Shown here one piece after another: positions 2,893 through 60,774 of a stretch of 64,000 nucleotides of DNA. The translations under genes and the position numbers were made by a program. Numbering within the stretch: position 1 is the first letter of the stretch; each line of letters opens with the position of its first letter. This DNA is from an uncultured Flavobacteriales bacterium (GTDB lineage Bacteria > Bacteroidota > Bacteroidia > Flavobacteriales > BACL11), in contig CAJQJY010000003.1 in NCBI GenBank assembly GCA_905478765.1, forward strand, positions 10,488-74,487, given 5' to 3'. The notes below the pieces were generated by a model that saw nothing but the letters and a program-made list of their open reading frames with translations, was not told the DNA's origin and made no database searches.

Positions 2893-2900
2893 CAAATATA
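2893..2900 (-). promoter_or_regulatory. Putative -7 promoter box for ftcD
   Basis: TATATTTG on the - strand matches the Bacteroidetes sigma-A -7 consensus TAnnTTTG, 21 nt upstream of the ftcD ATG. Confidence 0.4.
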
Positions 2901-2903
2901 GCT

Positions 2904-2938
2904 GTTAGTTACTAGTTGTTAGTTGACAGTTACTAGTT
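2904..2938. repeat. Five tandem heptamers GTTAGTT ACTAGTT GTTAGTT GACAGTT ACTAGTT
   Basis: Read directly from the sequence. Exact 7-bp phase, followed by a T run. Lies in the ftcD/queE divergent intergenic region. Confidence 0.9.
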
Positions 2939-55084: not shown

Positions 55085-55092
55085 CAAAGATA
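55085..55092 (-). promoter_or_regulatory. Putative -7 promoter box for smpB
   Basis: TATCTTTG on the - strand, 5 nt (caaat) before the ATG. Confidence 0.4.
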
Positions 55093-55125
55093 GTATTTAG
55101 ATGTTAGATATTAGAAGTTAGACAA
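55091..55125. repeat. Five TAG-phased heptamers TAGTATT TAGATGT TAGATAT TAGAAGT TAGACAA
   Basis: Read directly from the sequence with exact 7-bp phase. It overlaps the smpB -7 box at one end and the TTAGACA half-site at the other. Confidence 0.9.
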
Positions 55126-59104: not shown

Positions 59105-59131
59105 AAAAGCCACTTAATAAGTGGTTTTTTT
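59105..59131 (+). terminator. Rho-independent terminator
   Basis: CCACTT aat AAGTGG hairpin followed by T7. Confidence 0.8.
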
Positions 59132-59357
59132 ATGTAAAAATTAACTTTTGTAAACAAAGTTAGGTATAATTTGATATGAGTTTTTTGTAATTTACAGAAT
59201 TTTTAGTAAGATCAATGTATTATATTTGTTTTCAGTAATTTATAGTATTTATATGTAATGCTTGTTACGTTCTTTTATAAAGAAATCAGAACAATAATAT
59301 TAAAATATAAAAACAAATTTGTAGTTTTGCTGTTAACAATTGTAAATAGTAAAGTAA

Positions 59358-59657
59358 ATGCACGAAAGGCTCAAAAATTGGATGGGAATAGAAAGCTTAA
59401 AATCCTCAGCTTTGGCGGATAGTATTGGCGTGAATCGTGCAACAATCTCGCATATACTTTCTGGTCGAAATAAGCCAAGTATCGACTTTTTAGAAAAGCT
59501 ATTGAATGTGTATCCTAACATAAATGCCAACTGGTTAATTAGCGGAATTGGTTATATGCAGGACAATATGGATCAAAAAGAGGTACTTGTTTCAAAGAAA
59601 ATAGGCAAAGTTGTTGTGTTTTATGATGATAATTCCTTTGAAGAAGTAGGTGAGTAG
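59358..59657 (+). CDS. XRE-type helix-turn-helix protein
   Basis: 99 aa. SALADSIGVNRATISHILSGRNKPS is an HTH_XRE core. A TAGTTTTG -7 box lies 28 nt upstream. Confidence 0.8.
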   Translation: MHERLKNWMGIESLKSSALADSIGVNRATISHILSGRNKPSIDFLEKLLNVYPNINANWLISGIGYMQDNMDQKEVLVSKKIGKVVVFYDDNSFEEVGE

Positions 59658-59719
59658 TTGTTAGTTCCTATTTGTAATCTAATAACTATTAACTCATATC
59701 TTGTATCTTGTATCTATAT
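59650..59719. repeat. Ten tandem heptamers GTGAGTA GTTGTTA GTTCCTA TTTGTAA TCTAATA ACTATTA ACTCATA TCTTGTA TCTTGTA TCTATAT
   Basis: Read directly from the sequence. TA is fixed at unit positions 6-7 in 8 of 10 units. There is one exact tandem duplicate (TCTTGTA x2). Confidence 0.85.
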
Positions 59720-59723
59720 TTTT

Positions 59724-59731
59724 TACATTTG
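59724..59731 (+). promoter_or_regulatory. Putative -7 promoter box for pyrD
   Basis: TACATTTG matches TAnnTTTG, 14 nt upstream of the ATG at 59746. Confidence 0.4.
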
Positions 59732-59745
59732 CGAAAAATATATCT

Positions 59746-60774
59746 ATGTATAGAGTTTTCCGTTTTTTCTTATTCCTTTTTAACCCTGAAGCGATACACC
59801 ATATAACCTTTAAGATGATAAAAATTGCTGGGATGATTCCTGGTAAATTATGGGCTTTTCGTCTGCTGTTTAAAGTAAAGGATGCTAGATTAGAACGAGA
59901 TGTATTCGGATTAAAATTTGACAACCCTGTAGGCTTGGCAGCAGGCTTTGATAAAGATGCAAAACTGTTTGATGAATTAGCATCCTTTGGTTTTGGTTTT
60001 ATTGAAATTGGCACGGTTACTCCTTTCCCTCAAAAGGGAAATCCTAAGCCTAGGTTATTTCGCTTAAATGATGACAGTGGTCTTATCAATAGAATGGGTT
60101 TTAATAATCAAGGGATAGAAGTAGTAGTTGCTCGATTGAGAAGAAGAAAAACTAACATCATTATTGGTGGGAATATTGGGAAAAATAAAGTCACACCAAA
60201 TGAAAAGGCAGTAGATGATTATGAACTCTGCTTTGAGAAATTGTTTCCTTATGTGGATTATTTTGTGGTGAATGTAAGTTCGCCAAATACCCCAGGTTTG
60301 CGTGATTTGCAGGAGAAAGCACCCCTTACTGCTTTATTAAATAGATTACAGGAATTAAATAATGAAAAAGAATCCAGAAAACCAATCTTATTGAAAATAG
60401 CACCTGATTTAATCAATGACCAATTGGATGATATTATAGAAATTATAGCAACAACGAAAATTGATGGCGTGGTAGCAACTAACACAACAATTGATAGAAG
60501 TGGGCTTAAAACAGATACAAACAAGGTTAATGCTATCGGTAAAGGAGGTTTGAGTGGTAAGCCAGTTAGAGTAAGATCCACAGAGGTAATTAAGTACTTG
60601 GCTGATAAATCAAATAAAGCATTCCCAATTATTGGTGTAGGGGGAATACATAGTGCTGAAGACGCATTGGAAAAACTCGATGCAGGTGCAACATTATTGC
60701 AGTTGTATACGGGCTTCATTTATGAAGGACCATCACTTGTAAAAAGGATTAATAAGGCAATGTTAAAGAGATGA
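59746..60774 (+). CDS. pyrD: Dihydroorotate dehydrogenase (quinone), class 2
   Basis: N-terminal membrane-association helix, [27 protein letters not shown] and GGLSG motifs. I prefer the ATG at 59746 over the TTG at 59701, which lies inside the heptamer array. Confidence 0.9.

Follow-up and report, generated by a model that had tools for sequence, protein, structure and literature searches.

A degenerate heptanucleotide repeat tract, low in diversity among relatives, between an XRE-type gene and the pyrD promoter of uncultured marine Flavobacteriales

The 64-kb stretch of DNA analysed here (contig CAJQJY010000003.1, from an uncultured Flavobacteriales bacterium; hereafter the window) contains a 70-bp tract with a period of 7 bp. 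The tract lies between a gene encoding a small XRE-type helix-turn-helix (HTH) protein and the promoter of pyrD, the gene of dihydroorotate dehydrogenase. To judge from its sequence, it is a worn-down heptanucleotide tandem repeat with the pooled unit YAWCTAn, close to the TAACTGA type. Among relatives it changes length by whole units, and it is far less diverse than the third-codon positions of the two flanking genes. We favour, with about an even chance of its being correct, the reading that the tract is a decayed heptad repeat, born by slippage and retained as an upstream promoter or regulatory region of pyrD, where RNA polymerase or another factor would bind.

What the initial annotation had stated about the sequence of the tract proved correct throughout. 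The ten units at 59650-59719 are exactly those listed there, and a count placed TA at unit positions 6 and 7 in 8/10 units; position 3 is T in nine of the ten and position 7 is A in nine. As had also been noted, the array starts inside the end of the XRE gene (stop codon TAG, 59655-59657), and the −7 box TACATTTG follows 4 bp past its end, 14 nt ahead of the pyrD ATG at 59746. The tandem duplicate of TCTTGTA proved real: Tandem Repeats Finder (TRF) located it at 59697-59715 as TATCTTG in 2.7 copies of 100% identity. These ~2.7 copies are the only exact ones, and they form the sole part of the tract that TRF reports (score 38). The tract and its parts are the following:

59650-59719, plus strand: 70-bp heptad-periodic tract (sequence; lag-7 autocorrelation)
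59676-59717, plus strand: core array of six CT-phased units (exact-period CT run)
59655-59668, plus strand: left sub-array TAGTTGT TAGTTCC, the heptad family reversed (complement nnAACTA), left arm of a possible hairpin
59697-59710, plus strand: exact tandem duplicate TATCTTG TATCTTG (TRF, alignments, haplotype table)

The core consists of the units AATCTAA, TAACTAT, TAACTCA, TATCTTG, TATCTTG and TATCTAT, in which the dinucleotide CT occurs six times at exact 7-bp spacing (59679, 59686, 59693, 59700, 59707 and 59714; run 59679-59720). The first three or four of the ten units form a separate short sub-array, whose orientation is opposite to that of the core. A 12-mer of this left sub-array, TAGTTGTTAGTT, recurs on the plus strand at 2913, in the array upstream of ftcD (see below). 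In relatives the two parts of the tract are 1 bp out of register, so the single 10-unit register is partly peculiar to the haplotype of the window. The extra 7 bp of the TATCTTG duplicate are confined to the same haplotype. Each copy of the duplicate reads TATCTTGT and fits TAnnTTGY, a variant −7 motif (SM5) of Flavobacterium psychrophilum (PMC9723704); the motif fixes only about five bases, and in AT-rich DNA such a fit could be due to chance.

For the 70-mer, self-similarity fell from 0.62 (lag 7) through 0.55 (lag 14) to 0.43 (lag 21), compared with ~0.3 at other lags. The lag-7 autocorrelation was 0.619, whereas dinucleotide shuffles gave 0.323 ± 0.058 (z 5.1), and 0 of 20,000 shuffles reached the observed value. 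No other 70-bp segment of the 64 kb has a stronger periodicity over lags 2-15. When all positions and lags were corrected for, 27 of 200 block-shuffled windows reached the statistic of the tract (window-wide p ~0.13). The single autocorrelation value was rejected as genome-wide proof because it fails this correction, and a class-level test was used instead. Period-7 runs of at least five identical dinucleotides containing C or G were observed four times, against an expectation of 0.45 (300 shuffles, maximum 3; p < 0.004). The same test returned no run in the window at periods 5, 8, 10 and 11, and, apart from the codon period, 7 was the sole period with enrichment there. Lag 7 was also the top lag of 3-mer autocorrelation in intergenic DNA (z 4.1; with the pyrD spacer left out, 3.1).

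The length of the tract was compared in 50 contigs carrying the HTH-pyrD spacer. Nine of them were found by DNA-pattern search, one was L001, and 40 were retrieved via the near-identical HTH proteins P0003, P0005, P0015 and P0057; exact look-ups of the window HTH protein, of PyrD and of P0001 (100% identical to the HTH protein) gave no match. Three length states were distinguished:

5-unit form, 41/50 contigs: TTGTTAG TTTCCTG TTTGTAA TCTAATA TCTATTA TCTCATA TCTTGTA TCTATAT TTTT, then the −7 box
6-unit form (88-bp spacer), 8/50 contigs including the window: one identical haplotype
Rearranged form, 1/50 contigs (L085): perfect 14-bp tandem duplication TTGCTTGTTGTTAG x2; minus 24 bp (21+3), three ATCT units

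The 6-unit haplotype has a second TATCTTG (+7 bp) together with a 1-bp deletion, a G>A and two T>A changes, which are always linked. The eight contigs with this haplotype come from independent samples, and no intermediates were seen. The initial annotation had suggested that the array can grow or shrink by whole units, and the relatives bear this out with differences of +7 bp (window haplotype), +14 and about −21 bp (L085), and −7 bp (the smpB array described below, in L026). Its further suggestion, that slippage makes the array an adjustable control of the promoter, was not supported: no more than two units are exact copies of each other, the 50 contigs fall into three length states, and the 6-unit state always comes with the same four linked point changes. 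Length differences in multiples of 7 were present, in that the indels are whole-unit, but they are rare and fixed by lineage. The locus is not hypervariable, and the 6-unit state is a fixed lineage marker, not a flickering polymorphism.

In the 25 distinct 5-unit haplotypes nucleotide diversity (π) was 0.008 in the 60-bp tract and 0.000 in its left 28 bp, and the left sub-array (59655-59668) was invariant. At third-codon positions in the two flanking genes, HTH and pyrD, π was 0.055-0.26, which places the diversity of the array 7- to 30-fold below that of the adjacent coding positions. In the same contigs π was 0.23 in the non-coding DNA 5′ of the HTH promoter. Three contigs (L081, L082 and L083) have identical arrays with HTH coding sequences that are only 84% identical, and L001 shows ~90% identity in the tract versus ~50% in the non-coding DNA 5′ of the HTH promoter. 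Because it is far less diverse than the neighbouring third-codon positions, the array is probably functional. The fixed-column method of computing π makes the values for pyrD slightly too high, because the leader is 1 bp shorter in a few contigs. Neither this method, nor the selection of contigs, nor the mosaic structure of the locus discussed below can yield a 7- to 30-fold deficit.

The genes and the promoter elements around the tract are as follows:

59358-59657, plus strand: XRE-family HTH gene, 99 aa (open reading frame; Pfam HTH_3 PF01381, E 1.4e-8)
59746-60774, plus strand: pyrD, dihydroorotate dehydrogenase (Pfam DHO_dh, E 4.5e-90)
59724-59731, plus strand: pyrD −7 box of the Bacteroidetes sigma-A type, TACATTTG (perfect match to the consensus TAnnTTTG)
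59715-59742, plus strand: 10-bp A/T inverted repeat TATATTTTTT ... GAAAAATATA around the −7 box (arms 59715-59724 and 59733-59742; predicted stem)

A TAnnTTTG box is found 14-19 nt 5′ of the pyrD ATG in L001-L004, L006 and L026, and the −7 box of pyrD was kept in every orthologue examined. In F. psychrophilum this box spans −12 to −5, counted from the transcription start (PMC9723704), so transcription of pyrD would start near 59736 and have a leader of ~10 nt. Relative to this predicted start the array occupies about −17 to −86. It is because of this position, and of the −7 box present in every orthologue, that we read the tract as an upstream promoter or regulatory region. The A/T inverted repeat around the −7 box is invariant in relatives, which makes covariation uninformative for this stem. 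In Bacteroides fragilis promoters a −33 TTTG would stand 20 bp 5′ of the −7 box. No −33 TTTG was present at the expected distance from the pyrD −7 box; a CTTG stands 20 bp 5′ of it in the 6-unit haplotype only. The possibility that the duplication created a −33 element was rejected: the spacing fits, but within Flavobacterium a −33 motif could not be detected in F. johnsoniae (PMC7366714).

The XRE-type gene lies directly 5′ of pyrD on the same strand, and this order was kept in L001-L006, L018, L026 and all related metagenome contigs, a range that is family-level within Flavobacteriales. The host belongs to the uncultured marine Flavobacteriales; PyrD of the window is 87% identical to that of the metagenome-assembled genome CALSQD01 and 82% identical to that of Cryomorphaceae BACL11. 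The window is ~94% coding and 6% intergenic with 32% G+C, and in its coding density and G+C content it is typical of a streamlined marine flavobacterium. A perfect TAnnTTTG box stands shortly 5′ of the start codon in nearly every intergenic region of the window. The small XRE protein has the conserved C-terminal motif VVFYDDNSFEE. In the promoter of its own gene (59322-59346) the −7 box TAGTTTTG is directly followed by a near-perfect palindrome, TTAACAATTGTAAA, which reads TTTACAATTGTAAA in L001, L003, L026 and L085. Since this palindrome is conserved while the DNA further upstream has diverged, it is probably an operator through which the XRE protein would regulate its own gene.

CT phased at 7 bp over at least four units was found only three times on the two strands of the 64 kb. 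All three arrays are intergenic, run in the sense direction of the gene that follows and abut a perfect TAnnTTTG box, that of pyrD, smpB or ftcD. The two sister arrays of the pyrD tract are:

55085-55123, minus strand: smpB array GTCTAAC TTCTAAT ATCTAAC ATCTAAA TAC, then directly the −7 box TATCTTTG
2893-2937, minus strand: ftcD array ACTAGTA ACTGTCA ACTAACA ACTAGTA ACTAACA GC, then directly the −7 box TATATTTG

Weaker ACTnnnn heptads precede an exonuclease gene, the gene of a 2-oxoacid dehydrogenase E2 subunit and rnhB. The three strong and the three weaker arrays all share the sense orientation of the gene that follows, the exception being the reversed 2-unit left sub-array at pyrD. The kinship with ACTnnnA units 5′ of ftcD and the exonuclease gene, pointed out in the initial annotation, was confirmed by these shared phased heptads and by the unit YAWCTAn obtained when the arrays were pooled. 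A pyrimidine-specific signal is unlikely, because the array-bearing genes have no common functional theme. L026 has an smpB array that is shorter by exactly 7 bp, and L004 has none. Orthologous comparison of the ftcD array was impossible, because the relatives have either no spacer (L130, L131 and L133) or a different heptad tract (L132). In L130, L131 and L133 ftcD is fused behind hutI with zero spacer. The ftcD spacer of L132 (60-157) carries heptads of its own, GTTTTTG GTTTTTG GTTTCTA GTTATTA, which on the other strand abut the −7 box of a divergent radical-SAM gene.

The initial annotation had linked its proposal to a 7-bp periodicity in orthologous pyrD upstream regions. The closest orthologues are periodic; the more distant ones are not. 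L002 and L004 have other spacers between HTH and pyrD. The spacer of L002 (2756-3000) is ~245 bp long and contains 14-bp repeats, TTAGTATTAAGACT x2 and GTCTAATATCTATT x3.4. The repeat GTCTAATATCTATT is homologous to the TCTAATATCTAT core of the window array, which suggests that this core may have been the ancestral seed of the array. In distant Bacteroidota heptamer arrays with unrelated units adjoin pyrD or its neighbours:

L064, 938-967: (CTGCTTA)x4, touching the pyrD −7 box TACCTTTG
L007, 2951-2992: AAGnnnn x6
L057, 4053-4160: GACGTGA x15
L066, 352-383: CTAACCA x4.6

Periods 7, 14 and 21 accounted for 25 of the 93 TRF arrays across 585 kb of loci.

We suggest that successive slipped-strand duplications of 7 or 14 bp built up the tract in the space that separates the HTH stop codon from the pyrD promoter. 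In a genus-level clade of marine Flavobacteriales purifying selection would have retained it, and by now it would be a fixed, strongly conserved element upstream of this promoter, where it may serve RNA polymerase or another DNA-binding factor as a landing or spacing region. The number of units would change rarely and then become fixed in a lineage, and the second TATCTTG of the window would represent one such event.

Several observations weigh against this reading. L026 and L003 have no array, the distance from the HTH stop codon to the −7 box being 15-16 bp, and their pyrD promoters look intact. Because both keep the −7 box, the array is dispensable for the existence of a pyrD promoter, and any role of it would be lineage-specific. 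No binding factor and no motif of known function was recognised for the array. The ftcD array is not conserved in L132, whose FtcD protein is 97% identical; therefore not every array of this kind is constrained. The nine contigs found by DNA-pattern search had been chosen on 27 bp adjacent to the tract, although L001 and the 40 contigs found via HTH proteins had not. Finally, the locus is a recombination mosaic, in which HTH and pyrD identities are uncoupled between contigs: identity to the window is 98% for HTH and 89-91% for PyrD in L081/L086, and 82% for HTH and 91% for PyrD in L082. The uncoupled identities of L081-L089 to the window point to frequent homologous recombination with breakpoints near the spacer, so part of the low diversity could stem from a swept segment and not from selection acting site by site.

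The tract might alternatively act in RNA. If HTH and pyrD are co-transcribed, the G-poor tract with a C every 7 nt could function in the intercistronic RNA, either as an unstructured site for the ribosome or an RNA-binding protein (S1, cold-shock or CsrA-like) or as a hairpin formed by the inverted sub-arrays. A scan of 59657-59746 for intrinsic terminators gave no site, and the absence of a terminator-like site between HTH and pyrD agrees with such a co-transcript. The main arrays are on the sense strand of the downstream gene, which is C-rich and G-poor there, and a post-transcriptional role has been proposed for TAACTGA repeats (PMC4679880). The predicted fold of 59650-59745 (z −3.3) has two hairpins, with a 10-bp stem between 59655-64 and 59679-88 directly after the HTH stop codon, and the arms of this stem persist in L085 though the loop is reduced from 14-15 nt to 6 nt. 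The hairpin (59655-59688) is A/U-rich, has no adjacent T run and is not terminator-like; it is explained by the composition of the tract from two inverted sub-arrays. A conserved RNA structure was rejected as a finding and kept as a rival only, with no compensatory change or covariation in any predicted pair, a consensus energy of only −3.7 kcal/mol and a U-U mismatch in the stem of the majority haplotype. Rfam covariance models had no match within 59650-59745, even at E <= 1. Moreover, transcripts from the pyrD promoter would exclude the array, because the conserved −7 box lies between the array and pyrD. The ftcD array, situated in a divergent intergenic region, is likewise outside its mRNA because it is upstream of the −7 box of ftcD itself. 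On this evidence an RNA-level element appears unlikely.

The sole hit of the terminator scan was the terminator of the TonB receptor gene (59110-59124). This intrinsic terminator, GCCACTTAATAAGTGG followed by T7 at 59110-59130, stands 3′ of the TonB-dependent receptor gene. An Rfam match to isrD at 59110-59130 is sub-threshold (24 bits versus a gathering score of 37) and most likely reflects the terminator hairpin alone. Two coding explanations of the spacer were rejected. A 31-codon frame starting from TTG at 59658 is not conserved, because the differences of 1 bp and 7 bp that mark the 5-unit haplotype bring in a TAA after six codons. A 15-residue N-terminal extension of PyrD (TTG 59701) is unsupported, as all orthologues start with ATG-TAY.

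The tract could also be functionless residue of slippage, its low diversity being due to linkage with conserved neighbours or to a recently swept recombinant segment. Heptamers with unrelated units are scattered through intergenic DNA of Bacteroidota, as would be expected from the mutational bias of Mrazek et al. (2007) in the form in which PMC4679880 cites it. The array is absent from nearby orthologues, the ftcD spacer is wholly different in L132, and the locus is, as described, a mosaic. We nevertheless give this explanation a low probability. The 7- to 30-fold lower diversity and the 28 bp invariant across 25 haplotypes are at odds with it. In a genome that is 94% coding, a spacer of 60-66 bp should erode if it served no purpose, and the non-coding DNA 5′ of the HTH promoter is in fact highly diverged (π 0.23).

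Two further explanations have very little chance of being right. The first follows the view of the initial annotation and is a phase-variable promoter repeat, in which units would often be gained and lost, altering the promoter spacing and so tuning the expression of pyrD inside populations. One exact tandem duplicate and indels in multiples of 7 among relatives would fit it, and the extra unit does put CTTG 20 bp 5′ of the −7 box, the site where a −33 TTTG would stand in Bacteroides fragilis promoters (this motif is quoted in PMC7366714). Two identical units are, however, too few for high-rate slippage. Each of the three length states among the 50 contigs is tied to one haplotype, the eight 6-unit contigs being identical over 88 bp; pyrD is a housekeeping gene, and in F. 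johnsoniae a −33 motif escapes detection (PMC7366714). The second, that the neighbouring XRE-type regulator binds the spacer as an operator array and controls pyrD, could draw on the family-level conservation of the HTH-pyrD order, on the conserved palindrome TTWACAATTGTAAA directly after the −7 box of the HTH promoter and on a TTGTAA half-site in the spacer (59672-59677) that is kept in relatives, but TTGTAA/TTACAA occurs 133 times in the window, the spacer has no full palindrome, the sister arrays stand at genes that do not adjoin this regulator, and the heptad unit is unlike the palindrome. With this single half-site, an HTH operator in the spacer was rejected.

Intergenic heptamer direct repeats of the TAACTGA type have been described in Beggiatoaceae, in cyanobacteria and in five Bacteroidetes including Gramella, Aequorivita and Elizabethkingia (MacGregor 2015, PMC4679880). 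Most of them point forward towards the start codon downstream, strains differ by 7-nt indels, and their function is not known (PMC4679880). The pyrD tract resembles them in its 7-nt head-to-tail units, its intergenic and mostly forward placement beside unrelated housekeeping genes, its differences between strains in 7-nt steps and the shorter, repeat-free spacers of some close relatives. The window units TAACTAT, TAACTCA, TAACTGT and TAACTAA share 5-6 of their 7 positions with TAACTGA. An exact TAACTGA tandem was not found in the window, and the tract represents a related heptamer, not the named one. It differs further in that its copies are degenerate (2.7 exact) and abut a −7 box rather than a start codon. 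Its conservation across diverged strains is a property that lay outside the tests of PMC4679880.

Among the long simple repeats of prokaryotes, heptanucleotide units are the most frequent, a finding that PMC4679880 credits to Mrazek et al. (2007), and an origin by polymerase slippage has been proposed for such repeats. The loci examined here show the same preference for the heptad class, period 7 and its multiples being over-represented. As that paper summarises it, the class requires near-identical runs longer than expected by chance, whereas the pyrD tract seems to have decayed below this definition (TRF score of only 38 for its exact part).

Copy numbers of 7-bp repeats in the hmw1A and hmw2A promoters of Haemophilus influenzae set the level of expression. 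The same is reported of the TTTTGAT heptads in the ctxAB promoter of Vibrio cholerae (bioRxiv 10.1101/2021.05.14.444153). In both systems 7-bp units stand directly 5′ of the core promoter and their copy number differs between lineages, as is the case at pyrD. Their repeats are perfect copies at virulence genes and have known regulators or vary at high frequency; the tract of the window is degenerate, stable and located beside a housekeeping gene. In Nostoc PCC 7120 housekeeping genes of DNA repair have contiguous heptamers near their promoters or start codons, and deletion of these heptamers altered reporter activity (bioRxiv 10.1101/2022.06.06.494920). This placement near promoters or start codons of housekeeping genes is shared with the pyrD tract. 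The Nostoc repeat differs in its unit, TTTTGAA, and in the phylum of its host.

The pyrD tract alone leaves the understanding of pyrD regulation unchanged, and it is not a phase-variation switch. Its conservation is the one mildly surprising result. Upstream heptamer repeats have been catalogued in several phyla, and the pyrD tract is a good test case for deciding between a role in transcription and one in translation: one and the same promoter has 0, about 2, 5 or 6 units across related uncultured marine flavobacteria, which amounts to a natural comparison. A broader proposal, which we make tentatively and regard as rather unlikely, is that CT-phased YAWCTAn heptads at −7 boxes form a selectively maintained cis-regulatory module of streamlined marine Flavobacteriales, read by a DNA- or RNA-binding factor. 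If this were true, the TAACTGA-like heptamer repeats of Bacteroidetes, cyanobacteria and Beggiatoaceae would for the first time have evolutionary evidence of being functional and not slippage debris, in the form of the near-zero diversity at pyrD.

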